A DNA stretch of 28,761 bases from positions 1 to 28,761 of IMG/VR virus record IMGVR_UViG_3300006737_000131; one strand, written 5' to 3'. The translations under genes and the position numbers were made by a program. This DNA comes from a virus. Lineage: Duplodnaviria; Caudoviricetes. Position 1 is the first letter of the stretch. Each line of letters starts with the position of its first letter. The notes beneath the pieces are model-generated. The model was not told the DNA's origin, did not search any database, and saw nothing but the letters and a program-made list of their open reading frames with translations. Of this stretch, positions 7,831 to 28,761 are shown piece by piece.

Positions 7831-8520
7831 TTACTCTCTATCTTCGTCTGAGGCATACAAATTGTCAAATGTAGCCACTGGGTCTGTGTAGCTTTCATGT
7901 GCCTCGGCTGAATGTACCCATTGTGACGGTGCAAAATCTGGAGCACCCTCACCTGTTCTCCACAAAGCTGGGTTAGTTGCTCTTACTCTGTTATTGGGCA
8001 AAGCAACAAAGTTACCAGTATAGTCACCAGCATCGGTTAAGTATAACACGTGTGATTGTTTGTGTTGAGCTGAGTCGTCAGCTATTGAATGTTCAGTATA
8101 ATCTACAGTAAACATATATTTACCTAAATAAAACTCACCATCAATTTTACAATACCAAGGACTTGAACTAACCCTATCTAATGTAACCACACTATGATGA
8201 TGACTTAGACAATCCCAGGGTTGAGCTAAATGGTCTTGCATTGGGTTTGGCCACTCTTGTAAAGGAACATCTGCTACTAAAGCTTGAATAGGCATACGGG
8301 CCCACATAGCGCCACCATGTACGTTTTCATCTGGATAATTTTCAAAGTCGGTCTCGCAGCCTGTAAAGACCACTTGAAAGGAAAGAGACCTATCTGGAAT
8401 TGTATTTACTGCAAACGCTAAAGCATGCAGATATTCACCGTGTCCGTGTTGATGATTAGTTGTAAACTCTTTTCTTACCCAGCATTTAAACTGCGGGATA
8501 TTTGATATTAAATACGCCAC
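7831..8520 (-). CDS. Conserved hypothetical phage protein (His/Trp-rich)
   Basis: 229-aa ORF with GTG start and well-formed globular composition; motifs GGAMWARMPI, QPWDC, HKQSH, ALPNNR. Confidence 0.65.
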   Translation of the reverse strand: MAYLISNIPQFKCWVRKEFTTNHQHGHGEYLHALAFAVNTIPDRSLSFQVVFTGCETDFENYPDENVHGGAMWARMPIQALVADVPLQEWPNPMQDHLAQPWDCLSHHHSVVTLDRVSSSPWYCKIDGEFYLGKYMFTVDYTEHSIADDSAQHKQSHVLYLTDAGDYTGNFVALPNNRVRATNPALWRTGEGAPDFAPSQWVHSAEAHESYTDPVATFDNLYASDEDRE

Positions 8521-11199: not shown

Positions 11200-11228
11200 A
11201 TAATACTACTAGGCTGTATTTTGTGCAA
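11200..11228 (-). promoter_or_regulatory. Sigma70-type promoter for the downstream structural genes
   Basis: Minus strand TTGCAC (11228-11223), 17-nt spacer, TATTAT (11205-11200); overlaps the 3' end of the nucleotidase gene. Confidence 0.55.
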
Positions 11229-11718
11229 CCAAAGTGTCTTGGTAATTTCTAAGCTGTTTTATCGTATCAGCCGCACTGGTATGCAACACTCCTATGCCAC
11301 CTGCATTGGTCCAGGCTTCTATGTTATCTTTTCTATCATCAATCAACACATAATCAGGTCTTGCATAAACAGCTTTATGCTTGCCTTTTAATGTTGCCGT
11401 AATAAAAACATCTTTATCTACATACTTTCTAATCCAATAAATTTTATCTTGCACTACTTTGGTTCTGTTAAGTACACCAGATGCGGTAAGTATTTCCCAA
11501 TCCACTCCAAAGTTTTTTACATATTCAATTAAATAGTGCATATCTGGCATAAGTGGTAAATCTGCAAAAAGACCTTTATTAGATAGCTCAACTTTTCTAT
11601 CATCATAAGTATTCTCGTTAACTAAAGGACCATTTAAGTATTTAGGTCCTTGCACTCCTCTCACAAAGTCAGCGAGAACACCGTCCATGTCTACAAATAT
11701 TTTAGTTATCGGTGTCAT
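11209..11718 (-). CDS. HAD-superfamily 5'(3')-deoxyribonucleotidase (NT5C-like)
   Basis: HAD motif I IFVDMDGVLADF, motif II ILTAS, motif IV LIDDR. Start placed at ATG 11718 (TAATG overlap with the upstream gene). Confidence 0.8.
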   Translation of the reverse strand: MTPITKIFVDMDGVLADFVRGVQGPKYLNGPLVNENTYDDRKVELSNKGLFADLPLMPDMHYLIEYVKNFGVDWEILTASGVLNRTKVVQDKIYWIRKYVDKDVFITATLKGKHKAVYARPDYVLIDDRKDNIEAWTNAGGIGVLHTSAADTIKQLRNYQDTLVAQNTA

Positions 11719-12296
11719 TAGCGTCCCCAACCATAAGCAGTTTGATATTTAGGTTTTCCATCCCAAAGACTAGCATCTTCAAAAGAAGAAATAGAAACCC
11801 CATAAGGTCCAACTTTCTTTCTCATTTCTTTACCAATAAAAGCGTTTTTTACAGGCTTCACTAAATCCTCACTTGCGCCCTTAGTATCTAAGTATTCTTT
11901 ACCAATTTCTTCTATAGTAATCATACTTTTAGTTTTCTTCACTATTTGGTAAAAGTTGATGTTGGTTTGGTCATAACCCCAAGAGCTATAAAGTATTTCT
12001 CCCACTTTGTACTTGTCTTGGTTTTCAGCAGCCATGGCTTTTTTCTTTTCAGCATATTTCTTTTTGCTTTCGTAGCTGTCCGCTATGTCCTCAAAGTATT
12101 GTTTAACATACTCGTCTCTTCTCTCTGCTGTTTTGAAACTATAGTATTTGTCATACTTGCTTCTTTTGCCAGCAAACACCATTGCTGTATATTTTGTGCC
12201 ATCATCGTAGTCATTGATGTAAGCAACTGCATCTGTATTAGAATCTTCAATTTTTATTGAAGCCTTTGGTATGTAAAAATCTCTAGTTAAAGCCAT
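11718..12296 (-). CDS. Hypothetical non-structural protein (Lys/Tyr-rich)
   Basis: 192 aa with strong SD AAGGAGG at 12301-12307; motif KVGEILYSSWGYDQTNINFYQIV. Confidence 0.75.
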   Translation of the reverse strand: MALTRDFYIPKASIKIEDSNTDAVAYINDYDDGTKYTAMVFAGKRSKYDKYYSFKTAERRDEYVKQYFEDIADSYESKKKYAEKKKAMAAENQDKYKVGEILYSSWGYDQTNINFYQIVKKTKSMITIEEIGKEYLDTKGASEDLVKPVKNAFIGKEMRKKVGPYGVSISSFEDASLWDGKPKYQTAYGWGR

Positions 12297-14493: not shown

Positions 14494-15410
14494 TTTGCCT
14501 CCCTAGATGCAATGCGTTGTTTTTCTTTAGCAACGGATTTTAACCAAACGTCTTCCGTCATGCCGTATGGCTTTAATCCACGGAGTCTGTCAACTTCTGT
14601 TTTTGAAAATTGCACACCGTTCTTTTTGCCTTGTGTTTTTTGCCGACCTCCTACGGAGGCTGAGGCGACTCTTTGCACAGCGGGTCTGCCCTCACTTTGT
14701 TCAGCATTATCCGATTTTAAATCGGGATAAACTTTACCAATTCTTTGGTTTAATTCATTGTAATACTCATTTGAATCTGGTTCAAATCCTTCATTAACTA
14801 AATTTACATGCGTAAATTGAGCATATTGTGTTGCTTCTGGATTTTCACCAAACCATTTGTTTTCAGATGCCCAATCTAAAGCTTCTTGTGTTGGTACTAC
14901 TTGTTGTTGTTGCGCTTGTTGTTGTGGCTGCACTTGAGTTTGAGCTTGTGCTTGACTATAAGAATCTGTTTGTCTTTGTTTTGCTATTCTTACTTTTTCT
15001 TTTTGTATAGAAACTTCATTTTTAAGACTATCTGCCTTAGAAATCATTTCAGCATCACCAGACTCATGCGCTTTTTTAAACAATTCGTTTGCTTCACGTT
15101 CTTTTATAGACATCAATTCTTCATCTTTTGCAAGAGAAGTTTGTTGTGCTTGAACTGCATGCTGATAATAATTATGTACCTCAGCCTCTTTTTGTTGTAA
15201 TGCTTGTTCTAAAGCTTGTGCTTTTTCCTCAGCAGCTCTTTTTCTAGCATTTAATTTATTAATTCTTTTTGATACACCTTTTGTGTAATTTTCTAGTTCA
15301 TCTTCACTAGAAGCATTTTGAGACACCTCCTGTGATTCAGAATCAGTAACCTCTACCTGTATTTCTTCAACTTCTGGTTGAATTTGTTTGTTTTCATTTT
15401 CTATCGTCAT
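14490..15410 (-). CDS. Putative capsid scaffolding protein
   Basis: 306 aa, acidic N-terminus, long Glu/Gln/Ala/Lys coiled coil, WASENKWFG motif; lies between portal and MCP. Confidence 0.65.
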   Translation of the reverse strand: MTIENENKQIQPEVEEIQVEVTDSESQEVSQNASSEDELENYTKGVSKRINKLNARKRAAEEKAQALEQALQQKEAEVHNYYQHAVQAQQTSLAKDEELMSIKEREANELFKKAHESGDAEMISKADSLKNEVSIQKEKVRIAKQRQTDSYSQAQAQTQVQPQQQAQQQQVVPTQEALDWASENKWFGENPEATQYAQFTHVNLVNEGFEPDSNEYYNELNQRIGKVYPDLKSDNAEQSEGRPAVQRVASASVGGRQKTQGKKNGVQFSKTEVDRLRGLKPYGMTEDVWLKSVAKEKQRIASREAK

Positions 15411-15847
15411 AAGCTCACTATATCATCTGGATTGAGAATGGTGGCTATAACCTCATCATCATTAATGATTCTGACCTCTGCACCATCTTCAAGTTTAAAC
15501 CTAGAGCCAGAGTAACGCCCTATTAAAACCCATTGTTTTTCTTCACACCACGGAGTATCGCCATAACGTTTTTTATCGTTATAGCAAAGTGGTCCTTTTT
15601 TTACCACATAAGCTACTACTGTAGCTAAAGATTCGCGGTCTGTTGTTTGTTTTGTAAGTATGATACCACCGTCTGTTTTTGCTTTACCAGCATAAGGTAA
15701 AACTAACATTCTCCATCCTGTCGGTTGTGGCATCCTGTCTAAAATTGTTTTATCTAATTTTTCTGGGTCTAAAACTATCGCATCTGGCTCAACATAAGCT
15801 TCTGCTAATTTTTTTGCCATTACGTTATTTTTTTGTACATCTGTCAT
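15407..15847 (-). CDS. groES: GroES-like co-chaperonin
   Basis: PQPTGWRMLVLP...KTDGGIILT...VVKKGP...VLIGRYSGSRFKLEDGAEVRIINDDEVIATI follows the Cpn10 pattern, with an N-terminal extension. Confidence 0.8.
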   Translation of the reverse strand: MTDVQKNNVMAKKLAEAYVEPDAIVLDPEKLDKTILDRMPQPTGWRMLVLPYAGKAKTDGGIILTKQTTDRESLATVVAYVVKKGPLCYNDKKRYGDTPWCEEKQWVLIGRYSGSRFKLEDGAEVRIINDDEVIATILNPDDIVSL

Positions 15848-18985: not shown

Positions 18986-20466
18986 TAGTAAACCGTCCTA
19001 TTTTTACTAAGTAGTTTTACTTCATCTTGATAATCTTCATATAGAGATATAAAACCACCTTGACGAAATCTCATTAAAGCCATTGTAGCACTATCGCAGA
19101 AATCATCATAATCACCAAATGGGAAAGAAGCCATTTCTTCTATTACATCCTCTGCAAAATCATCTTCGGGCGCCCAAACCATTCCAGACTCAAATATAGG
19201 TGCAACACTGTTCATACGTGCTATTTTATCTTGTCCTCTACTAGGTGAGTAAGATGTAACTGGTATGCCCATGCGCCTTAGTTCATGCGTAAGAGGTGTT
19301 CCAGAGGCTTTAGCCTCAATTAAAACACAATCTGGTTCCCAATACCTGTATTCTTCTAAAGCAAGTTTTTTTAGTTCAGGAAAATCACACCTAAGTCTTT
19401 TTGCATCTAATAAAATTATTTCATCATTGTTTTCATCGCCACGATTAAAAATTGCCCAAGTCGTAATAGCTGAGTAGTCCGCAGTTTCTTTTTTAGAAAA
19501 AGCGGTATCATAACTTTGTATTACATAACTATATGGTGGTACATCTTCATCTTCCCATCTATTCCACCACTCCCTTTTAACTATAGAGCCTTCTTCTGCT
19601 GTGGGATTTTGCATCCATTGGCTATTCCATTTAGATATAGGTAATGATGCTTTCACTCCTAACAATTCTTCTTTTTTCCAAAACTCTGGCCAAAGAGGTT
19701 TATCTGATTCTGGCATAATTGCAGGAAACTCTACTACTTCCCATTTGTCTGCATTTTCATCGCCTTGTTTTTTTAAAACTTTTCCAACCAAATCTTTTGT
19801 ACTCCATCTAGTCATAACTATAACTATGATGCCTCCAGGCTGTAAACGCTGTCTAGGACCAGATGTGTACCATTCATAAGCTGATTCCAAAGATTTAGGT
19901 GATAAAGCATCTTGTTCACTATGAGGGTCATCAATTATTAATAAATCAGCACCACGACCTGTTATAGCACCACCAACACCAGCTGCGAAAAACTCACCCT
20001 CTTGGTTGCTTGTCCAACGACCAGCTGATTTGTTATCTGCTTGTAGTTTTAAATCTGGAAATATATGTTGATACTCTGTGCTATCTATAATATTTCTTAC
20101 CTTACGACCAAACCTAACAGCTAATTCAGCTGTGTGAGTTGTTTGTATTATTTTTAAGTTGCCGCGTCTTCCCATCATCCATGCAGGAAAAAATGTTGAT
20201 GCAAATTCAGATTTAGAGTGTCTTGGTGGTAAACATACAATTAAACGTTTTAGCTTGCCTTCTGCTATACGATTAAATTTGTCTGCAATTATTTTATGAT
20301 GTCTGCCTTCAATAAAATCAGGCCACATGTGATTAAGAAAACTTATAAAATCATTTTGACAGTCATCTTGTTTTTCAAGCTGGTCGTATCTTTGTAATAA
20401 AGCTACGGCTTCTGATTTATCCTGTTCAGAAAGAATATCAAAATCTTTAAATGATACATCTTTCAT
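18982..20466 (-). CDS. terL: Terminase large subunit
   Basis: Walker A-like LPPRHSKSE, GGAITGRGADLLIIDDP (Walker B), VMTRW coupling motif, nuclease motifs SYDTA and DDFCDS. Confidence 0.92.
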   Translation of the reverse strand: MKDVSFKDFDILSEQDKSEAVALLQRYDQLEKQDDCQNDFISFLNHMWPDFIEGRHHKIIADKFNRIAEGKLKRLIVCLPPRHSKSEFASTFFPAWMMGRRGNLKIIQTTHTAELAVRFGRKVRNIIDSTEYQHIFPDLKLQADNKSAGRWTSNQEGEFFAAGVGGAITGRGADLLIIDDPHSEQDALSPKSLESAYEWYTSGPRQRLQPGGIIVIVMTRWSTKDLVGKVLKKQGDENADKWEVVEFPAIMPESDKPLWPEFWKKEELLGVKASLPISKWNSQWMQNPTAEEGSIVKREWWNRWEDEDVPPYSYVIQSYDTAFSKKETADYSAITTWAIFNRGDENNDEIILLDAKRLRCDFPELKKLALEEYRYWEPDCVLIEAKASGTPLTHELRRMGIPVTSYSPSRGQDKIARMNSVAPIFESGMVWAPEDDFAEDVIEEMASFPFGDYDDFCDSATMALMRFRQGGFISLYEDYQDEVKLLSKNRTVYY

Positions 20467-20470
20467 AAAC

Positions 20471-20530
20471 GAGCTAAGTCACAAGGTAGCGACGATAACT
20501 TTTGCAACCTAGCTCTAAGCGTAAACGCCT
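20471..20530 (-). promoter_or_regulatory. Structured leader: two hairpins directly upstream of the terL start
   Basis: Minus strand AGGCG-ttta-CGCTT, then GAGCTAGGTTGCAA-17 nt-TTGTGACTTAGCTC (14 bp including three G-U pairs), ending 4 nt before the ATG. Confidence 0.5.
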
Positions 20531-20550
20531 GATGCTAGTATTACATATCG

Positions 20551-21000
20551 TCAAACTTCGTGCCATTCTTTACCTTCAAATAATAAAGCCTCTGCCTCTC
20601 TTCTTCTAATAAGTCCCTGTAAAACTTTGCCTCCAGCTTTATTCCATCTTTTTATTTGTGCAGGAATATCATTCCAATCTGGATGTGAACTATTTAAAAC
20701 TTTTAATAAAGTTGAACTTTTTAAATTAGCTGGGCCTAGATTAAAAACCCACGAAACTAAAGCATCAAATTCGTTTTGTTTTAATTTATTCTCAACCATG
20801 TCGTTTATATAACCTTCATACTCTTCCATTTCATGCAGTAATAAGTTGTCTGCTTCTTCTTGTGTAATGCTGTCACCATCTTTGACTCCTTTGGTTGAGC
20901 CGTAGCCTATTGTCCAAACGCCAGCAGCGCATTTATAAGCTTCAAGTTCACAGCCTTCAAATTTTTTAATTAGTGCTAATCCTTCTTGTGAAATATTCAT
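20551..21000 (-). CDS. Endolysin, GH24 (T4 lysozyme-like muramidase)
   Basis: Start moved to ATG 21000 (GGGGAG SD). MNISQEGLALIKKFEGCELEAYKCAAGVWTIGYGST has the E-8x-C-5x-T catalytic spacing; also FDALVSWVFNLG and GLIRRREAE. Confidence 0.9.
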   Translation of the reverse strand: MNISQEGLALIKKFEGCELEAYKCAAGVWTIGYGSTKGVKDGDSITQEEADNLLLHEMEEYEGYINDMVENKLKQNEFDALVSWVFNLGPANLKSSTLLKVLNSSHPDWNDIPAQIKRWNKAGGKVLQGLIRRREAEALLFEGKEWHEV

Positions 21001-21001
21001 A

Positions 21002-21397
21002 TTATTCTCCCCATTTTTTTGTTTTTGTCCCGCCGAAATAAGGTACGGCAAGATTTTCTTTTTCAAGCAATTCAGCAATATTTCCTTTATCGCAGAATAT
21101 GTCACCTAAAACTCTTCCATATTTATCTGTTCCATAAGATTTTAGTGTTATATCACCTACTAGCCATTCTTTCAATTTTTGTTTAGCTAATAAACCTAAT
21201 TCTTTTTCTTTTGTTCTTTCTGGGTATTTTTTTATATTTATACGGCTTTCTGGTGTATCAATGCCGTTTATTCTGACAGCTTTGTTGTGTAGTTGAACAG
21301 AAAAGCCTAAATCAATAGTTTCCAATCTTACTGTATCACCATCAGTTACAGATTTTAGTTTACATTTATATACAAATGCTTCTGGTGAATTACTCAT
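21002..21397 (-). CDS. Thermonuclease (SNase-like) family nuclease
   Basis: VTDGDT, VRINGIDTPE and DKYGRVLG motifs; no signal peptide. Confidence 0.85.
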   Translation of the reverse strand: MSNSPEAFVYKCKLKSVTDGDTVRLETIDLGFSVQLHNKAVRINGIDTPESRINIKKYPERTKEKELGLLAKQKLKEWLVGDITLKSYGTDKYGRVLGDIFCDKGNIAELLEKENLAVPYFGGTKTKKWGE

Positions 21398-21779
21398 TTT
21401 CTTGCTCCTCAGTTGTAGTTACTTTTCTATAATACACCACTACATCTTTAAGTTCAGTGATATACCTTTTGATTTCTTGCATGTTGTATGCCATAACTTC
21501 GTAGTCAGGAATAGTCATAGCAAGAAATACTAACTCTCCCTCTTGTTCTTCTATAAAGGCTAGTTGTTGTTCGTAGTTTTCAGGTGTAACCACAATCCAT
21601 AAAGGCTCTTGCAAGTCTATTTCTCTAGGCATAATAGGTTGTACTATTTTCCTATCTATAGGTTTTGCTGATACTTCTATTTTTTTAGTCGGTATCAGGC
21701 TGCAACTGTAAACCATCATCAAGGCCATCAACATCACTGCTGATTTGCTCAATGTTTTCCATAATATGTTTTGTTCCAT
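21390..21779 (-). CDS. Putative o-spanin (Rz1-like lipoprotein)
   Basis: Hydrophobic stretch AVMLMALMMVYSC ending in a lipobox-like Cys, then a Pro-containing segment and helix. The 5' end overlaps the upstream i-spanin-like gene; the exact start is uncertain. Confidence 0.55.
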   Translation of the reverse strand: MEQNILWKTLSKSAVMLMALMMVYSCSLIPTKKIEVSAKPIDRKIVQPIMPREIDLQEPLWIVVTPENYEQQLAFIEEQEGELVFLAMTIPDYEVMAYNMQEIKRYITELKDVVVYYRKVTTTEEQENE

Positions 21780-22083
21780 TATTTATTTTCCTCTGCATTT
21801 CTACTGGGTCTGCTAGTATCTTTTCAGCTAATTCATAGTTTTGTATAAATTTTGTGTATCTGGAAAGTTCTTTTTGTGCTTCTTGGCTTTTTACAACAAG
21901 ATTATTCATTTGTTTTGTTTGTAATTCATAGTCGGCTTGTATAGATTTAATTGTTGCTTCTTGTGTGGCTATAGCACCTTCTAAAACTACATTATTAGCT
22001 TTCAGAGTTGAGTTTTCTTGATATAGCCAATAACAACCCATGCCTAAAACTAAAATTATACCTATGAATATTTGTTGCATCAT
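21685..22083 (-). CDS. Putative i-spanin (Rz-like)
   Basis: Single N-terminal TM (IFIGIILVLGMGCYWLY) followed by a long coiled coil; overlaps a lipoprotein gene near the endolysin. Confidence 0.6.
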   Translation of the reverse strand: MMQQIFIGIILVLGMGCYWLYQENSTLKANNVVLEGAIATQEATIKSIQADYELQTKQMNNLVVKSQEAQKELSRYTKFIQNYELAEKILADPVEMQRKINNGTKHIMENIEQISSDVDGLDDGLQLQPDTD

Positions 22084-22084
22084 T

Positions 22085-23836
22085 TTAAACTGTCCATATT
22101 TGTAAAGCCTTTGTTTTACCTTTAACTTTTATAGGTTTTGGTAATTTTAATACATTTTTACAATTTTTTGCAGTATTTTTACCAATTAAGATGTCAACAC
22201 CAGCTTCTTTTGTTGCAGACTCTAATCTTGCGGCTACATTTACCGCATCACCAATAGCAGAAAAATCAAACCTTGTATCAGAACCCATATTACCTATTAC
22301 TGCTTCACCAGAATTTACACCTATGCCAATAGCTATCGGTTCTGGTAAATCTTTTTGTAGCTGTATGATTGCAGTACGCATATCTTGAGCACAAGCTACT
22401 GCTTTTTTTTCGTGTTCATCTAAATCTAATGGTGCTCCAAATATTGCCATACAAGCATCACCTATAAATTTATCCACCATACCACCATGTGCCTGTATGC
22501 AAGTAACTTGTGCAGTTAATACTTTATTCATTATGTCTGTTACTTGTTCAGGCTCTAATTTTTCAGACAAATTTGTAAATCCCCTGACGTCGGTGAACAA
22601 GAACGAGCAATATTTTTTTTCGCCTCCAAGTTTTAACAAATTAGGATTATCTTGTAATTTTTTGACTTGTCGTGGGTCAAGATAGTGTTCAAACTGTTTT
22701 TTAATTTGCAGTCTTAACTTGAACTGCTCTCTAAATCTTATATAAAATGCTGTGGTGCCAGTAATAAACTGTGATATTAAAGACCAGGTAACATCAACAA
22801 GTAAGTTTGTTTTTATAAGGTAATATCCAAGAGAGCCAGTAGAAACCATAATACTTAAGCCTAATATAATTCCCCATGTAATGCCAAAACGTATTAAAAC
22901 AAGCCATATAAGGCTAACTGTGACTAAAAATATAACAAGTTCTACTGCTATTGCCCAATCAGGTATAAAAGGACTGTCTTGTATAAGTATGGACTCAGCG
23001 AGTGCTGCTTGAATCTTGTGTGGTTCTAGTAATCCAACTGGCGTGGCTACTTGTGGCATTACTCCATTAGCAGTAACACCTACAAAAACAAACTTACCAT
23101 TTACGTCCATTTCTTGTAAATCTGTTTGTGGTGTATCAACCCAACTAATCCATTTGCGACCAAAACTATCAGTTTTAACAGGTGGTATTCCTCTTATTGA
23201 TATTTCTGATATTCCATTATCATTAGTTTTTATAATATAAGTTTTAACATTAAATAAAGCTTTATATATTTGTGTGCCAAAACTAGGAATCCACTCGTTT
23301 TCAGGGGTTTTTACTAAAAGAGGTATTCTTCTAACAAGTTGGTCTATGTCAGTGGGAGCAATGGCTAAACCCTGTAATGTATTATTTTTTAGAGTGTTCA
23401 GGTTTTCCTTAACTCCCAAAGATACTATACCACCATTATCATCACCCATGACAACTGTGCCAGTTGATTTTGGATATTTACCCTGACCGTCCTCAAACAT
23501 AGCTATTACGGATGGAGCGTAGCCTAAAGACCTTGCAAAATCTTCATCACCTCCCATCCTATCTGCTTGTGGAAAACTAATAACCCAGCCAACGCCAACA
23601 GCACCTTTACCTAATATTTCTAGCTGTATTTCAGCTAATCTTTGTCTGGGTAAAGGCCAACCACCTTCACGTTCCACATCTTCTTCGGTAATATTCAGTA
23701 TAACAAAGTTGCCTGACTGTTCTGGTGTTTTTACCAATGCATCAAAAGTTTTAAGTTTTAGTATTTCTGTTGGCGTGCTTTGAAATAATAATGGTAAAGA
23801 CAGTGTTATAAGTAGAGGTAATAATAATCGTTTCAT
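22085..23836 (-). CDS. CHASE2-domain membrane-bound class III adenylate/guanylate cyclase
   Basis: N-terminal anchor; CHASE2 motifs (VILNITEEDV..GGWPLPRQRLAE, DQLVRRIPL, GKFVFVG, TPVG...HKIQA); three TM helices; cyclase core FLFTDVRGFT, VDKFIGDACMAIFGAP, IGIGVNSG, GDAVNVAARLES, VKGK. Confidence 0.92.
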   Translation of the reverse strand: MKRLLLPLLITLSLPLLFQSTPTEILKLKTFDALVKTPEQSGNFVILNITEEDVEREGGWPLPRQRLAEIQLEILGKGAVGVGWVISFPQADRMGGDEDFARSLGYAPSVIAMFEDGQGKYPKSTGTVVMGDDNGGIVSLGVKENLNTLKNNTLQGLAIAPTDIDQLVRRIPLLVKTPENEWIPSFGTQIYKALFNVKTYIIKTNDNGISEISIRGIPPVKTDSFGRKWISWVDTPQTDLQEMDVNGKFVFVGVTANGVMPQVATPVGLLEPHKIQAALAESILIQDSPFIPDWAIAVELVIFLVTVSLIWLVLIRFGITWGIILGLSIMVSTGSLGYYLIKTNLLVDVTWSLISQFITGTTAFYIRFREQFKLRLQIKKQFEHYLDPRQVKKLQDNPNLLKLGGEKKYCSFLFTDVRGFTNLSEKLEPEQVTDIMNKVLTAQVTCIQAHGGMVDKFIGDACMAIFGAPLDLDEHEKKAVACAQDMRTAIIQLQKDLPEPIAIGIGVNSGEAVIGNMGSDTRFDFSAIGDAVNVAARLESATKEAGVDILIGKNTAKNCKNVLKLPKPIKVKGKTKALQIWTV

Positions 23837-24955
23837 TTAATCACTTTGAGTGATAGTAATAACACTATCGCTGCCTCCATTTATTTTGACAACGTTAGAT
23901 ATACCATCTTGTATTAATATTACTGTATAAGCGTTAGAGCCGTTCAAGTCAACTCTTACACTTTCATTTACCTCTCTTCGCATACTTATTAAATTACCTG
24001 AAATTAGAGTTGTTATTTGTGTTTCGGGGTCTTTGCCTAATAAAGTGCCAGATATTTGTGTGCTAGTTGCTTGTGCTAAAGCATCCTCATCTTCATCAAT
24101 AGCTAAAGCATCTAGTACATTAAGTAAGTCTTCAAGATAATTAACGTCAAGATAATTAATATCTAATTCTGTAAATTCTAAACTATCTTCTTTCAAATAA
24201 TCTTCTGCAAGATAGTCTATGTCTAGGTCATTAAAATCTAAAACGCTATCAGTTTGAGTGTTAGTAACTTCTTCTTCTGCGATAATTTGTTCTTTAGGCG
24301 GCGTTACAATTAACATATTATCAATAACATCTAAAGTTAAATCTAAAATCACAGGTTTTGTAGGAGCTGATTCAAATACACTTACTGTAGTAGCTTCATA
24401 AGGTTTGTTCAATATTACTGTCCCCATTGCTGTAACCACTTCTATTTCGCCACTAGACAAACCAAAAGCATCTGGCAAAAGAATAATTAGACTACGCCCA
24501 AGTTCGTCAACTGTAGCTGTAAAATCAGTGCCACGAATAGCTATGTTGGCTGTAGGTGTTTTTAAAGTAATGTTTTGTTTGTCTATGCGATTTAGATTGC
24601 CTGTTATAAATCTAGCCGTGCCAAGTCCAAAGGTAAGAGCCATCTTTGATTTGCTTGGGTCAGGGTCATAGATATATTCATCAATTAAAAGCTGTGAATG
24701 TTCTGTAAGCTTTACAGTAGAATCATCAAGAAATGTAATGGCCATACGACCATTTGTTGTTATGGCTTCATCGTTGCTTTGTATCGCAAACTTTAAATCT
24801 GCATCGTATGGCTTATCTCTAACAATTTGTGCCGAGCCATTTAGTTCAGATATGTCACCTATATCAACAGCCTGTGCTTGTACCTTGGTCGTTTTGAATG
24901 ACACAAACAGTAGAAGCAGAAGTGCCAGAAATGGATATAATTTTAAGCCAGTCAT
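23837..24955 (-). CDS. Secreted FecR-domain protein with acidic linker
   Basis: Signal peptide ending VQAQA; FecR motifs DEAITTNGRMAITFLDDSTVKLTEHSQL and LKTPTANIAIRGTDF. Confidence 0.8.
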   Translation of the reverse strand: MTGLKLYPFLALLLLLFVSFKTTKVQAQAVDIGDISELNGSAQIVRDKPYDADLKFAIQSNDEAITTNGRMAITFLDDSTVKLTEHSQLLIDEYIYDPDPSKSKMALTFGLGTARFITGNLNRIDKQNITLKTPTANIAIRGTDFTATVDELGRSLIILLPDAFGLSSGEIEVVTAMGTVILNKPYEATTVSVFESAPTKPVILDLTLDVIDNMLIVTPPKEQIIAEEEVTNTQTDSVLDFNDLDIDYLAEDYLKEDSLEFTELDINYLDVNYLEDLLNVLDALAIDEDEDALAQATSTQISGTLLGKDPETQITTLISGNLISMRREVNESVRVDLNGSNAYTVILIQDGISNVVKINGGSDSVITITQSD

Positions 24956-25598
24956 TGTCTTGGGTACTCAGTTGTTGAATATTAAATGTTCTTGAACCTC
25001 CGGTATGGTCTAACCAAAAATATCCGCCTGCTGATGCTGTGGCTCCTGTACCTGTATAAGTAATTGTATTGTCAGAACCATCTATGTCCATGTAGTTGGT
25101 TGCTCCATCAATATTAATATTTGATGTCACTGTGTTGTTAGAACCTTGAATAATCCAATCTAAATTTAGATTTGTAGCTAACGCGCTTGTACCTTGATTT
25201 AAAGTAAACGTGTTTCCACTGCCTGTGACATCTACATTTTGGTCTGAGCCATCAGAACTATAAGTATTACTAGGGTCAACTTGAATAGTAAAACTATTTG
25301 TTCCACCATCAAACTCATAAAACCCTGTGAAATTGTCTGCCCAAATATCACCTAAAAATTTATTAGTTGCACCAATCATATTAATATCTAGTGTCATACT
25401 ATTTCCGTCTAAATCAAAAGCATTAACACTGCCAGCAGTTGAGTTTAACCCACCAATAATATTAGATATACCTAGTTGCTCTAGGTCTATATTTGCACCA
25501 GTACCAGACTGGTCTACATATATTTCGTTATCAGCCGCGTACATTGTCGATGCAGTCAGCATCACAATCAGGCTCATCAATTTTAGTTTCTTCATCAT
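24864..25598 (-). CDS. Secreted curlin-like (CsgA/CsgB-like) beta-solenoid protein
   Basis: Signal peptide MMKKLKLMSLIVMLTASTMYA; repeats NEIYVDQSG, NIDLEQLGISN, DVTGSGNTFTLNQG, IIQGSNNTV, DIDGSDNTI; Asn/Gly/Thr/Asp-rich; directly downstream of csgG. Confidence 0.65.
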   Translation of the reverse strand: MMKKLKLMSLIVMLTASTMYAADNEIYVDQSGTGANIDLEQLGISNIIGGLNSTAGSVNAFDLDGNSMTLDINMIGATNKFLGDIWADNFTGFYEFDGGTNSFTIQVDPSNTYSSDGSDQNVDVTGSGNTFTLNQGTSALATNLNLDWIIQGSNNTVTSNINIDGATNYMDIDGSDNTITYTGTGATASAGGYFWLDHTGGSRTFNIQQLSTQDNDWLKIISISGTSASTVCVIQNDQGTSTGC

Positions 25599-26436
25599 TT
25601 AATTCTACTCCTTGGTTATTATTTTGTAAAATCCAGAAACCTTTTTCATAACCATCATTTACGATTTCTAGCACACCTCCTTCTATAGCTTTCATTAAAG
25701 CTATGGTTGATGACTCATTTCTTGCGTTACCCATTTCTACTTCCACTAGCTCGGTTCCAGCCTCAATAAACTTAAATATGTCCTCAGATTTGCCGTAACT
25801 AAATATGGTCTTTTGACTTAATACTTCTAGTAAAACCTCGCCTGTAGCAACAGAAACCATACGTAAACTTACAGTTATGTTGTCTTCTCTGTATTGAACA
25901 CTTTTACCAACACCTAAATACCTAGCACCAGAACCACCACTTTCTAAGTTAGATTCATAAGAAATAACAGCTCCCTCAATTAAAATGCCAGCAAATAAAA
26001 GCGGTCTAAGAGCTTTGTTTTTTTCTTCTTCGTCTGTTGATTGTTCTCTAGCACTACGTATTAGCTGTCTTTCCTTGGTTAGGTTGTCTAGTCCTACTCG
26101 TTCAACTACCCTAAAAAATTGACCATTACCAGCGTGTTTCAAAGCTCTAATAAGTAAAGCGTTTGGTTGTTGTGTTATAGCTGTACTAAATAAAGCAAAT
26201 TCGCTGTTGCTTTTTCTTTGTCCTGTTTGGTCTGTAAAGGACGCAGGATAGACAGCAACTACAGGACTTATTTTTGGTATAGGCACATTTTTAAGCTCTG
26301 TAGATTGTAAGTCTTGAATATTTACAACATTATAAGCAGAAAACCTATGCTCATAAGTGTCTTCAAGTTGGTCAAATGTAGAACAACTAGAAAGTAAAAG
26401 TACCAATAGGTATAGTAATTTCGGTAACTGTGCCAT
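25531..26436 (-). CDS. csgG: Curli secretion channel CsgG/HfaB-family lipoprotein
   Basis: Lipobox LLLSSC; VAVY..FTDQTGQRK, FSTAITQ, FRVVERVGLDNLTKERQLIRS, LRPLLFAGILIEGAVISYESN, GARYLGVG, QYREDNITVSLRMVSVATGEVL. Confidence 0.92.
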   Translation of the reverse strand: MAQLPKLLYLLVLLLSSCSTFDQLEDTYEHRFSAYNVVNIQDLQSTELKNVPIPKISPVVAVYPASFTDQTGQRKSNSEFALFSTAITQQPNALLIRALKHAGNGQFFRVVERVGLDNLTKERQLIRSAREQSTDEEEKNKALRPLLFAGILIEGAVISYESNLESGGSGARYLGVGKSVQYREDNITVSLRMVSVATGEVLLEVLSQKTIFSYGKSEDIFKFIEAGTELVEVEMGNARNESSTIALMKAIEGGVLEIVNDGYEKGFWILQNNNQGVELNDEETKIDEPDCDADCIDNVRG

Positions 26437-26899
26437 CTGCTTCGGTTATTTTTAGGGTTAGTGTCACACCGTCGCTTGTGTACTCTATTGTATTACCTTC
26501 TAAAGTGATGGTGCCAGAGCTTTGTGGCGTTTCACCAAAAAGATTATTAACTAACTGTCTTGATAGCTCTGCATATACTCTTGATTCAAGGTTACGCATA
26601 AATCTTGCAAGTGTAGAGTTTTCTTTTTCTCTTTCTATCTCATCTTGTAAGGCTTTTATTTCTTCTTTAAGTGTAAGTTTACGAGTGTATTGTTGGTTTT
26701 CTATTGTAAGATAATGACTTGATGTTCCTATGCCATTAAAACTAGGAGACTTGAATTTATGTACTATTTGGTCAGCTGCTAAATTCATTCCAATTACAGT
26801 TAAAAACATGATAACTCCAATAAGAAACAGCCATGTTGCTATTTTAGTTTTTACTATTTCTTCTTGGATTTTTTCTTGTTTTGTCATTCTCTTTTTCAT
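26387..26899 (-). CDS. csgF: Curli assembly component CsgF-family protein
   Basis: Hydrophobic N-region, then ADQIVHKFKSPSFNG (CsgF-type F-x-x-P-x-F-x-G), LESRVYAELSRQL, C-terminal ITEADGTVTEITIP; directly upstream of csgG. Confidence 0.8.
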   Translation of the reverse strand: MKKRMTKQEKIQEEIVKTKIATWLFLIGVIMFLTVIGMNLAADQIVHKFKSPSFNGIGTSSHYLTIENQQYTRKLTLKEEIKALQDEIEREKENSTLARFMRNLESRVYAELSRQLVNNLFGETPQSSGTITLEGNTIEYTSDGVTLTLKITEADGTVTEITIPIGTFTF

Positions 26900-27119
26900 T
26901 TAACTCTAATACAGTGTTAACTTTCTGTTGTAATCGTATCATATCTTGGTCTAACAGGCGAAGTTGGTCAGTGAGTCTTATAATTGTTTTTTGCATTTCA
27001 CTTACAGCAGGTTCTACTGTTTTAGTTACTGTCACCCAAACATAATAAACAAAATATCCCAAGCCAATTACCATAACAGTAGCAAAACCAAACTTTTCAA
27101 TTAACGCCACTACATCCAT
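26844..27119 (-). CDS. Small single-TM + coiled-coil membrane protein
   Basis: 91 aa: LIEKFGFATVMVIGLGYFVYYVW, then a coiled coil containing DQDMIRL. Confidence 0.7.
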   Translation of the reverse strand: MDVVALIEKFGFATVMVIGLGYFVYYVWVTVTKTVEPAVSEMQKTIIRLTDQLRLLDQDMIRLQQKVNTVLELNEKENDKTRKNPRRNSKN

Positions 27120-27412
27120 TAGTCTCTTCTAGCGTCTATTTTTCCATCTTCTACAAAGTTTTCTGCTCTCGCAATTCTATCTAAGTCAGGTGCTAAATTT
27201 AAAGCACTAGAAACACTTGTATCAATACGTATCATATCGTTATTCATTATTGATGCTCTGGTAATAAGCATCTTAGCTATTCCTTCTACTGTTTTGATTT
27301 TGTTGACTAGACCAGTCATCATTTGTTTCATAATCAGGAATATAAAATATCCCATAATTAAACCGCTTGCTATTGGCAATCCGACCTTTTCAATAAGGTC
27401 AAAAGCGTCCAT
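27119..27412 (-). CDS. Small single-TM + coiled-coil membrane protein (paralogue of the neighbour)
   Basis: 97 aa: LIEKVGLPIASGLIMGYFIFLIM, then a coiled coil containing NNDMIRI. Confidence 0.7.
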   Translation of the reverse strand: MDAFDLIEKVGLPIASGLIMGYFIFLIMKQMMTGLVNKIKTVEGIAKMLITRASIMNNDMIRIDTSVSSALNLAPDLDRIARAENFVEDGKIDARRD

Positions 27413-27798
27413 TAGTTATCTTCGCCTTTAAATCCTTTTGATGAATTTGTTGTACCTGCATATAAACCAAACCAAGCAGCGCCAGCACCTACGACTATTG
27501 ATATAAGTCCTGATTGTTCAAAACTTGGCTCTGGTAAGGCCATAAACCATATTGTGCATTTGTAAAGAAGAACTATGTAAACAGTTAAAAACATTCTTGG
27601 AAATATTCTCCAAGAATCTACTGCTTTTGCTAAGTGAATCCATCTTTGGTGAGGATTAACTTTGTCATCTGCTTCTAAATCTCTAATTTTATCTTTGAGT
27701 TCTGATATTTCTTGAATCATAGCCATAAACTTATTTAAGTCCATTTCTACTTCATTTCTATCCATGTCGCCACCAAATCTGCCGCTACTATCGTTCAT
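27412..27798 (-). CDS. Two-TM membrane protein, holin candidate
   Basis: 128 aa: N-terminal coiled coil, then VDSWRIFPRMFLTVYIVLLY..WFMALPEPS..QSGLISIVVGAGAAWFGLY, charged C-tail. Confidence 0.55.
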   Translation of the reverse strand: MNDSSGRFGGDMDRNEVEMDLNKFMAMIQEISELKDKIRDLEADDKVNPHQRWIHLAKAVDSWRIFPRMFLTVYIVLLYKCTIWFMALPEPSFEQSGLISIVVGAGAAWFGLYAGTTNSSKGFKGEDN

Positions 27799-27980
27799 TA
27801 TATAAATCTCGCTAAAACTATACTAGCCACTATAAAAGGATAAACGGCCCAAAGCATATTTTCTAGTTTGTCAAATCTTTTTGAGCCATCCTCAAGACGC
27901 TTATCTATACTTCTGTATAAAGCTCTGCACTCTCTTTCGTGAGCTTCTATTTTGTTTAAAGCGTCTTTTACTGTAGCCAT
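27798..27980 (-). CDS. Small coiled-coil protein with C-terminal TM (XhlA/holin-associated-like)
   Basis: 60 aa: HERECRALYRSIDKRLEDGSKRFDKLE followed by MLWAVYPFIVASIVLARFI. Confidence 0.6.
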   Translation of the reverse strand: MATVKDALNKIEAHERECRALYRSIDKRLEDGSKRFDKLENMLWAVYPFIVASIVLARFI

Positions 27981-28135
27981 TATTTATCGTTTTTTACTCT
28001 TTTGGTTGTGTAAGCTTCATTAACATCTGGTGTTGATTTGTCATCTGCAACATAATGCCCTTTTTTATTTCTAGCTCTTACTTCAACTCTTTTTGTTCCA
28101 GTAACTTTGTCCCAAATATTACTTAACCAGCTCAC
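27980..28135 (-). CDS. Small hypothetical protein (51 aa)
   Basis: Below the ORF-track cutoff. GTG start in a GTGA overlap, TAATG overlap at the end: MSWLSNIWDKVTGTKRVEVRARNKKGHYVADDKSTPDVNEAYTTKRVKNDK. Confidence 0.65.
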   Translation of the reverse strand: MSWLSNIWDKVTGTKRVEVRARNKKGHYVADDKSTPDVNEAYTTKRVKNDK

Positions 28136-28293
28136 GATTTATCCTTAGCTTTTCCTATATTCAAAGCTAACATATCAATAAATTTGTATAATTTACCAAT
28201 CCAAACGTCGTCCTTTGGCGTTGGTGTACTAGCAGCTACTAAACTGCTTATTGTAACAATGGCTGTTACCCACATAATTATTTCTACAATCAT
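28132..28293 (-). CDS. Small membrane protein (53 aa), holin candidate
   Basis: Below the ORF-track cutoff. GGAGG SD at 28301-28305: MIVEIIMWVTAIVTISSLVAASTPTPKDDVWIGKLYKFIDMLALNIGKAKDKS; N-terminal TM plus amphipathic helix. Confidence 0.7.
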   Translation of the reverse strand: MIVEIIMWVTAIVTISSLVAASTPTPKDDVWIGKLYKFIDMLALNIGKAKDKS

Positions 28294-28505
28294 TTTTCAT
28301 CCTCCTTTGGATTATTGCTGGCACTATTTTGCAAACTATTAGCCAGTGTTTGTTCATAAGTTCGCAAACTTGGTACAAGTTCTTCAATTTCAAATTGATG
28401 TGCTTGTATTTTTTTTGTCAAGCTGTTGATATGAGCTTGCATATTCTGCTGTTCAATCGTTAATTCAATTTCTACAGGCTTTGTTTTTTTATTTTTCGTC
28501 GCCAT
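28290..28505 (-). CDS. Small coiled-coil hypothetical protein
   Basis: 71-aa ORF with GAGGT SD and an ATGA overlap downstream. Confidence 0.6.
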   Translation of the reverse strand: MATKNKKTKPVEIELTIEQQNMQAHINSLTKKIQAHQFEIEELVPSLRTYEQTLANSLQNSASNNPKEDEK

Positions 28506-28760
28506 TTAATTTACCTCGCTACTAGCATTTTCATTTATTATATCAAAACAATTAAGGTTTGACGCTATGGTTCGTCTTTCTCCTTCACCTTTGAAGGGAT
28601 AGACCATGTGTTGTAACCAAGAAGGGAAAATTAATAACTTTCCTACTTCTGGGGTCATAACAAATGATTGAGCTGGTTTTAATCTTTCACCGTCTATAAC
28701 TGATACTTGTCCGTATTGAAAAGCTATACAGCCGTCTGAGTGTCCGCTTTCATTATATAA
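28506..28760 (-). CDS. 2OG-Fe(II) oxygenase, C-terminal part (gene starts outside the window)
   Basis: Translated by hand: ...TPEVGKLLIFPSWLQHMVYPFKGEGERRTIASNLNCF..., with the distal His and 2OG-binding Arg pattern. Confidence 0.8.
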   Translation of the reverse strand, partial: LYNESGHSDGCIAFQYGQVSVIDGERLKPAQSFVMTPEVGKLLIFPSWLQHMVYPFKGEGERRTIASNLNCFDIINENASSEVN

Positions 28761-28761
28761 A

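Follow-up and report, generated by a model that had tools for sequence, protein, structure and literature searches.

What does a phage gain from carrying a curli pore, a curlin-like protein, a FecR-domain protein and a CHASE2 cyclase in a single block of genes? The question is raised by the IMG/VR virus record IMGVR_UViG_3300006737_000131, of which positions 1-28,761 were analysed (this whole stretch of 28,761 nucleotides is hereafter the window), and where seven open reading frames (ORFs), all on the minus strand, run from 27412 down to 22085, each abutting or overlapping the next. ORF inspection together with Pfam and profile searches confirmed the initial annotation of these contiguous genes as including CsgF, CsgG, a curlin-like protein, a FecR protein and a CHASE2/class III cyclase, and all seven are real and intact. 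The cassette (22085-27412) represents, in intact form, a phage block of curli, FecR and adenylate cyclase genes that has been published before, and the full set, with a counterpart for each cassette gene, is present in HTVC008M (NC_020484, 6900-13807) and Melnitz (MZ577097). As to what the block does, the best-supported reading is an envelope-spanning sensor, in which the FecR protein would couple the CsgG/CsgF pore and the surface curlin to the CHASE2 cyclase, possibly while threaded through CsgG; judging from sequence and from analogy with bacterial systems, we give this reading about an even chance of being right, ahead of each of the alternatives considered below.

The cassette shares its genes, their order and its phage group with the viral type VIII secretion system (T8SS)/curli region of pelagiphages, as presented in the available text of PMC9599517 and PMC7029224. 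In the accessible part of the former, Wittmers et al. (2022) describe the order HK-(HK)-csgF-csgG-csgA/B-fecR-(csgA/B)-AC (HK, histidine kinase; AC, adenylate cyclase) in nine HTVC023P-type podovirus genomes as well as in myoviruses, name the cyclase CHASE2 in the supplement, and report the cassette at all 65 GOV2.0 stations and its expression in metatranscriptomes. The initial annotation was thus wrong in knowing of no podovirus-type case, and the novelty of its proposed trans-envelope sensing-to-cyclic AMP (cAMP) relay falls with it, leaving the co-occurrence of the parts and the genetic precedent of NsrA-CyaK, described below, in favour of that relay. The window phage is itself supported as an HTVC023P-like podovirus type, since its major capsid protein is 60-63% identical to those of HTVC023P-type phages (60% for HTVC023P/027P and 63% for DSL-LC04, the latter listed with a gammaproteobacterial host). 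Compared with the published region, the window lacks a second curlin and has spanins and a lysozyme beside the cassette, and the labels 'histidine kinase' and 'iron-dependent regulator', which PMC9599517 in its available text gives to the small genes and to FecR, respectively, are unsupported. In the open literature, subscription journals lying outside the search, we found no paper joining csgG, FecR and CHASE2 as terms, and nothing linking retention module, FecR, adhesin and periplasm, nor SAR11/Pelagibacter with cAMP-CRP-adenylate cyclase. A tie between the phage curli FecR and CHASE2 inputs of the NsrA or adhesin-anchor type was not found stated in the literature searched, and the name 'NsrA' is absent from the main text of PMC9599517. 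Of the papers listed for NsrA and CyaK, PMC5498481, which has CyaK, was the one that also mentions FecR.

Three viral scans with CsgG as the query gave 240 loci (the best 80 of each scan, not dereplicated, one being the window phage itself), and these bear out the co-occurrence of csgG, FecR and CHASE2 cyclase on which the initial annotation had staked its relay. Downstream of csgG come a curlin and a FecR gene in 167/167 phage loci that extend 2.3 kb or more on that side, a CHASE2 gene was seen in 104 of the 107 loci reaching 6 kb or more, csgF was found in all 224 loci with enough upstream DNA, and the small transmembrane (TM) genes were found in 78/97 loci (37/37, 16/16 and 25/44 by set), counts from which we conclude that the cassette order is not due to chance. 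Where loci are rearranged or inverted (L268, L269, L273, L285, L286, and L288), the cyclase and the TM pair stay close, often moving together. All regions of the cassette are under purifying selection, the median ratio of non-synonymous to synonymous polymorphism (pN/pS) by region being 0.09-0.47 between the window and 53-57 distinct podovirus alleles, and the cyclase is the most variable cassette gene. An estimated ~1100 IMG/VR stretches match the word patterns of the window FecR, and protein searches of a 5.8-billion set returned only close phage relatives among the best 120.

As a bacterial control, csgG loci were taken from a genome collection (16/64 parts scanned, best 80 of 596), and dropping L318, L319, and L355 left 77. 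Over distances of up to 8 kb, none of these has a FecR, CHASE2, cyclase or TM gene, so that in the sample examined curli parts are joined to FecR-cyclase parts in phages only. The three dropped loci, from Rhodobacterales, Sphingobacteriales and Pirellulales metagenome-assembled genomes, have T4-like neighbours by eye (clamp, clamp loader, RegA, Hsp20), score as phage-type and are probably mis-binned phage contigs; two of them, L318 and L319, are the only cassette carriers among the 80 loci kept.

The FecR protein (23837-24955, 372 amino acids) matches the FecR family (PF04773, E 2e-9) over residues 66-151 only, and its anatomy was read from an 88-sequence alignment and a predicted structure. 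After the signal peptide it consists of a FecR-fold domain (mature residues 1-185; 24317-24955 with the signal peptide), an acidic linker of 85 residues (186-270; 24062-24316), predicted to be disordered, with 25 Asp/Glu and 2 Lys/Arg and a predicted local distance difference test (pLDDT) score of ~50, and a C-terminal beta domain (271-344; 23837-24061) with pLDDT >90. The N-terminal domain, defined from the model, VIA and profile alignments, has pLDDT >90 over most blocks and resembles the PupR signalling domain (6ovm; Z 15.4, root-mean-square deviation (rmsd) 2.5 Å, 135 residues, VIA), while its first half resembles the 'cell surface anchoring domain' 5ix9 (Z 7.4 in VIA; rmsd 1.5 Å over 63 residues in Foldseek). 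The latter is also the only clear PDB sequence match of the FecR protein (E 0.0014, no other below E 0.5), and we take it to be a periplasmic plug that retains a giant adhesin in its pore. A search of BFVD with the FecR model returned two phage FecR proteins and nothing else. The periplasmic signalling-domain fold of the FecR/PupR type is thus present, and the protein has neither TPRs nor a beta-barrel.

What follows the N-terminal domain is also conserved, the linker being kept in all 88 aligned members (median 79 residues, range 42-112) and the tail being present in 165 of the 167 FecR proteins of the phage loci. A hydrophobic-x-Gln strand ends 81 of the 88 aligned tails, like the curlins, of which 62/66 end in the same way. 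When the tail profile was run against 13,954 ORFs, 32 non-FecR matches of at least 10 bits were found, of which 18 were curlins and 9 were CsgF C-termini, and the tail resembles the C-terminal sheet of CsgF as well as the curlin ends. Conversely, the curlin-end profile scored a mean of 7.9 bits on the 88 tails, compared to 4.3 on reversed and 1.4 on shuffled tails. A resemblance of the FecR tail to curlins is suggestive, not proven. No usable match for the tail was found in the ESM Atlas. In one locus (L221:4444-5592) fecR is present as two ORFs with the tail domain separate, reflecting either a frameshift or an assembly error.

Domains of this kind adjoin CHASE2 receptors in bacteria. The phage FecR N-terminal domain matches 26 plasmid records, and all five that were opened adjoin a CHASE2 cyclase. 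In S. meliloti the matching gene is orthologous to one that bears the annotation nsrA and abuts cyaK; NsrA carries FecR at 66-160 followed by TPRs and aligns to the phage profile with a probability of 95.8, and the phage and CyaK cyclase domains are 43% identical over 221 residues. As described in the available text of PMC7529298 and PMC13001267, NsrA is an outer-membrane barrel through which a protein, ribosomal uL2, signals to CHASE2 cyclases. In the phage cassette and in the S. meliloti NsrA-CyaK (CyaD1/D2)-Clr system alike, the gene for a FecR domain with a signal peptide immediately precedes that for a CHASE2 class III cyclase; NsrA reaches the surface by its TPRs and its own beta-barrel, whereas the phage protein has a linker, a curli-like tail and a separate CsgG/CsgF pore. 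In S. meliloti as well as in Rhizobium sp. BG4 (L399:5118-5657 and L403:2382-2927), nsrA-cyaK has a divergently oriented neighbour, a gene for a membrane protein resembling Pycsar effectors (PycTM, PF18967, E 3e-11).

Among 29 bacterial CHASE2 loci (9 loci plus 20 of 58 further places chosen for large contigs and score spread), 12 encode a protein homologous to the phage FecR domain no more than ~6 kb away. The appendages of these bacterial FecR partners vary (a barrel, LysM, OmpA next door, disordered tails or an RTX adhesin), and the best bacterial match scored was the N-terminal domain of a 1421-residue RTX adhesin (99.8 bits, probability 99.5). In locus L433:1089-7879 (G050), this adhesin, which also has Calx-beta and VWA domains (L433:1089-5354), lies divergent from a CHASE2 cyclase, a pairing that suggests that anchored adhesins can signal to CHASE2 receptors. 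In RTX adhesins such as 5ix9 and that of L433, as in the phage protein, an acidic low-complexity linker comes after the homologous N-terminal domain, but these adhesins are exported by type I secretion via a C-terminal signal. The phage protein is four times shorter, carries a signal peptide of the Sec type and would leave by way of CsgG. LapA and MpIBP have a retention role. The pairing of FecR with CHASE2 in bacteria has been noted before: in the text available, PMC5192318 places an exported LysM-FecR protein beside a CHASE2 kinase in Burkholderia, and PMC9239204 a CHASE2 cyclase with FecR, TPR and phosphodiesterase proteins in Campylobacterota, both without curli parts. To these published clusters belongs a response regulator or a phosphodiesterase, neither of which was seen in the window. 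Because FecR-CHASE2 pairs recur with varied appendages, FecR proteins of this type would serve CHASE2 receptors as modular inputs, that of the phages having a curli-type appendage beside a curli pore.

The receptor in the window is a CHASE2/class III nucleotidyl cyclase of 583 residues (22085-23836; CHASE2 PF05226, E 3e-27; Guanylate_cyc PF00211, E 1e-20), the best PDB matches of which are adenylate cyclases. Class III cyclases use two metal-binding Asp, a Lys and a Thr, Ser or Asp that specify adenine, and an Asn and an Arg that act on the transition state. In the phage cyclases D416, K456, D460, R537 and K572 are invariant (50/50), position 526 is S, T or D (S526 in the window), and N533 is kept in 41/50. 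Since K456, the S/T/D at 526 and the other catalytic residues fit these established rules, the active site is predicted to be adenine-specific and to make cAMP from ATP. A pyrimidine or guanylate cyclase was rejected on the basis of K456 and S/T/D526.

The pore proteins complete the picture. CsgF (26387-26899, 170 residues; PF10614, E 1e-14) has a signal-peptide-like N-terminus, and its mature start keeps the motif F-x-x-P-x-F-x-G, presumably with the role of a constriction peptide. CsgG (25531-26436, 301 residues; PF03783, E 6e-46; NF011731, E 7e-55, under that model's equivalog cut-off) has a lipobox Cys18 that is invariant in 39 sequences and hence points to the outer, not the inner, membrane. 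It is established for these families that the outer-membrane channel consists of CsgG and CsgF, and that curlin is exported and stacks on CsgF. In the window phage, CsgG and CsgF would likewise form the channel through which the curlin is exported to stack on CsgF, and the signal peptide would bring the FecR protein to the periplasm, where its folded N-terminal domain may stay inside as a plug, with the acidic linker in or under the pore and the curli-like tail docked on CsgF or the curlin. Given the NsrA-CyaK precedent and the pairing of bacterial FecR and CHASE2 genes, the N-terminal domain would be the input to CHASE2, so that surface binding, pulling or occupancy could alter cyclase activity and the predicted conversion of ATP to cAMP. 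The weakest step is the last, in which cAMP would tune late infection (lysis timing, or the response to a neighbouring or superinfecting phage), with the one-helix pair as candidate effector or scaffold. A more specific form of this proposal is that marine phages grafted a bacterial FecR domain of the adhesin-anchor/NsrA type on the curli pore. A single chain would then run through CsgG, with its tail on CsgF and curlin at the surface and its plug on CHASE2 below, so that contact with cells nearby, with lysate or with phage would lead to cAMP, and cAMP, acting without Crp on the one-helix proteins, would set the lysis time; this form we consider rather improbable.

Several observations weigh against the envelope-spanning sensor. 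The curli-like nature of the tail is questioned by a weak hhalign alignment of the tail to the curlin end (E 0.004, probability 8.5), by the presence of Q-x-G-x-x-N in only 10/88 tails, by reversed tails retaining about half of the curlin-end score, and by the VIA rows covering the tail, which had Z 3.7 or less and among which no fold stood out. At the cytoplasmic end, the NsrA pathway has a Crp-like reader (Clr), but a cNMP-binding domain (PF00027) was found in 0/10 phage records, of which 5 were from podoviruses and 5 were larger; 7 of the 10 are at least 90% complete. CHASE2 is 55-70% identical where the FecR N-terminal domain is 88-96% identical, unlike a tight co-evolving pair, in loci that were chosen by csgG similarity. 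Moreover, 17 of the 29 bacterial CHASE2 loci are without a detectable FecR neighbour, and modules without the cyclase, commoner in podoviruses, are reported in the available text of PMC9599517. Finally, adjacency to lysis genes, from which a role late in infection might be argued, is mostly a podovirus trait, being seen in 3/11 and 3/38 loci of the other two sets.

The strongest alternative is that the block makes curli fibres, the amyloid aggregating or shielding infected cells in sibling capture or as a superinfection shield, with FecR and the cyclase regulating it or riding along. Capture of sibling cells was proposed for viral curli genes by Zaragoza-Solas et al. (2020) (PMC7029224), and aggregation, superinfection defence or uptake by Wittmers et al. 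(PMC9599517), as far as the available text of both goes. The curlin-like protein (24864-25598, 244 residues), secreted and with degenerate Q/x-x-G-x-x-N repeats, is a real solenoid homologue: while it has itself no match to Curlin_rpt (PF07012) or to any Pfam family, 35 of the 66 members of its alignment match Curlin_rpt, and the alignment profile matches the curli structures 8c50 (E 2.5e-7) and 8enq (E 0.0015). Its model (pLDDT 83) is a two-sided beta-solenoid with the curli subunit 8c50 as top match in VIA (Z 17.3, rmsd 8.9 Å, 20% identity), where SufB-type helices tie with 8c50 at lower rmsd; in a Foldseek search of PDB, nothing matched at an E of 0.001 or lower. Fibre formation is further favoured by a second curlin after fecR in 48 of 79 loci other than podovirus ones (22/26 and 26/53 myovirus-type loci). 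That of HTVC008M (L158:9594-10919) has a PA14 domain (E 3e-6) and is a candidate sugar-binding tip, sugar binding being a role of PA14 domains. However, the window phage has a single curlin with degenerate repeats, a second one occurs in 0/134 podovirus loci, and Melnitz infections were without clumping according to the available text of Buchholz et al. (2022) (PMC9004378). Fibres would also leave unexplained the tailed FecR protein, which is near-constant in the phage loci and found in 0/77 bacterial curli loci, and we therefore regard this alternative as unlikely. In L066-L070 the curlin is 48-53% identical to that of the window, whereas the neighbouring csgG and fecR are 82-85% identical; the surface part may be under diversifying selection or have had its allele swapped.

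A second alternative keeps the signal to the cyclase but not the passage through the pore. Here the FecR protein would be wholly periplasmic, its tail capping the pore or binding unexported curlin instead of CsgE/CsgC, and the cyclase would report the state of secretion or of the envelope. The initial annotation saw no csgE, csgC or csgD, and none was matched among the 35 (Pfam) and 42 (PHROG) window proteins scanned, which fits such a gate. Compared to bacterial curli (type VIII secretion), the window shares CsgG, CsgF and the curlin-repeat solenoid, but has no match to CsgE, CsgC or CsgD, one curlin, and FecR, cyclase and TM genes that are absent from 77/77 bacterial loci; in the text available of PMC9599517, alphaproteobacterial curli operons are likewise without CsgE, CsgC, CsgD or separate CsgA and CsgB. 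It also fits that the FecR proteins paired with CHASE2 in bacteria are in many cases short, or carry LysM/OmpA domains that stay in the periplasm (PMC5192318, available text). Against it stand the long acidic linker, which every aligned member keeps, and the best-scoring bacterial match, an N-terminal domain that belongs to a secreted RTX adhesin, and we regard this alternative as distinctly unlikely.

The genes around the cassette raise a third possibility, namely that CsgG/CsgF act as a pinholin- or secretin-like lysis timer, as Buchholz et al. (2022) proposed in the available text of PMC9004378, with the small TM proteins as holins. The cassette lies directly upstream of an i-spanin and an o-spanin (21390-22083; phrog_739, E 2e-11, and phrog_812, E 1e-11) and of an SNase-like nuclease and a phage lysozyme (20551-21397; PF00565; PF00959, E 9e-47), all on the minus strand and outside the cassette, and lysis genes are present in 18 of the 22 podovirus loci with wide flanks, counts that used podovirus-derived profiles, by which unrelated lysins would be missed. 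This adjacency fits late expression and, as a guess, allows a role in lysis timing. Small membrane proteins A (27119-27412, 97 residues, ending in ...DARRD) and B (26844-27119, 91 residues), paralogues of each other that both match phrog_18771, each have one hydrophobic helix and a coiled-coil-like segment, and ESM leads, to be read as leads only, pointed to YvrJ (0.87) and to the BhlA holin (0.85). But the outer-membrane location to which the CsgG lipobox points does not suit such a timer, the phage already has spanins, the curlin, FecR and cyclase would be unexplained, and none of 57 small TM members matched a holin family by hidden Markov model (Pfam, NCBIfam). A lysis pore is thus very unlikely.

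The small genes share their position with homologues in HTVC008M (45% and 40%) and Melnitz. In L005, L008-L011 and many podovirus loci, a single 116-residue gene directly upstream of csgF replaces the pair and retains the type-A C-terminal motif (...ADRDDQRKD), suggesting a homo-oligomer in place of a hetero-oligomer. A histidine kinase identity was rejected, as the proteins are 91-97 residues long, the 57 members contain no histidine kinase family (Pfam, NCBIfam) and no alignment column exceeds 14% His. The FecR protein was similarly rejected as an iron anti-sigma regulator, having a signal peptide, a single N-terminal hydrophobic segment and no cytoplasmic anti-sigma part. Hence a role in taking up iron or nutrients, with FecR as an iron-responsive regulator beside histidine kinases, following the labels of PMC9599517, is extremely unlikely in spite of the FecR/PupR fold and of a pore which, without a CsgE gate, could admit small molecules (PMC9599517, available text), since no extracytoplasmic function (ECF) sigma factor or TonB-dependent receptor was matched among the window proteins scanned (Pfam, PHROG).

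Apart from the cassette and the lysis genes, the window is a late-gene arm with terminase, portal, capsid and SU10-type adaptors (Pfam, PHROG), and an IMG/VR record identical to it (G001) adds primase-helicase and exonuclease genes. Amid the head and tail genes are a GroES-like co-chaperonin (15407-15847), a 5'-deoxyribonucleotidase (11209-11730) and phrog_3704 ('ferredoxin'; 7831-8520). Upstream of the cassette, 27412-28293 holds three further small hydrophobic genes (128, 60, and 53 residues), the 60-residue one having a weak match to a gene transfer agent head-formation family (E 2e-5) and sitting behind the cyclase in several loci. The lysozyme would need a holin, and holin identity is unconfirmed for all three (Pfam, PHROG, NCBIfam). 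In L005 (L005:10881-11360) and similar spanin-less loci a conserved 159-residue membrane protein (phrog_1544), holin-like by eye and with no Pfam support, lies between cyclase and lysozyme, and some loci that are not of the podovirus type (L205-L226, L310, L316, and L317) have a spanin pair beside or near the cassette. Promoter-like sites at 20000-28761 (26 vs. 35 expected) and terminator-like sites (5 vs. 4) were not beyond chance, and Rfam gave 0 matches in the window.

Marine viruses commonly carry the cassette, and three functional guesses, aggregation, uptake and a lysis pore, have been published for it. The locus itself adds little to these; the gain is a testable wiring, in which the FecR protein would be an input of the NsrA or adhesin-anchor type with a linker and a curli-like tail, and the 'histidine kinases' are not kinases. 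If the envelope-spanning sensor is real, phages would use a transmembrane cyclase to perceive what happens outside the cell that they infect, and work on it would bear on the activation of CHASE2 receptors, the ligands of which are unknown according to the available text of PMC5192318. And if the grafted pore does set the time of lysis, it would amount to a form of lysis inhibition that phages encode themselves and run by a second messenger, in viruses that are among the most abundant of the ocean.

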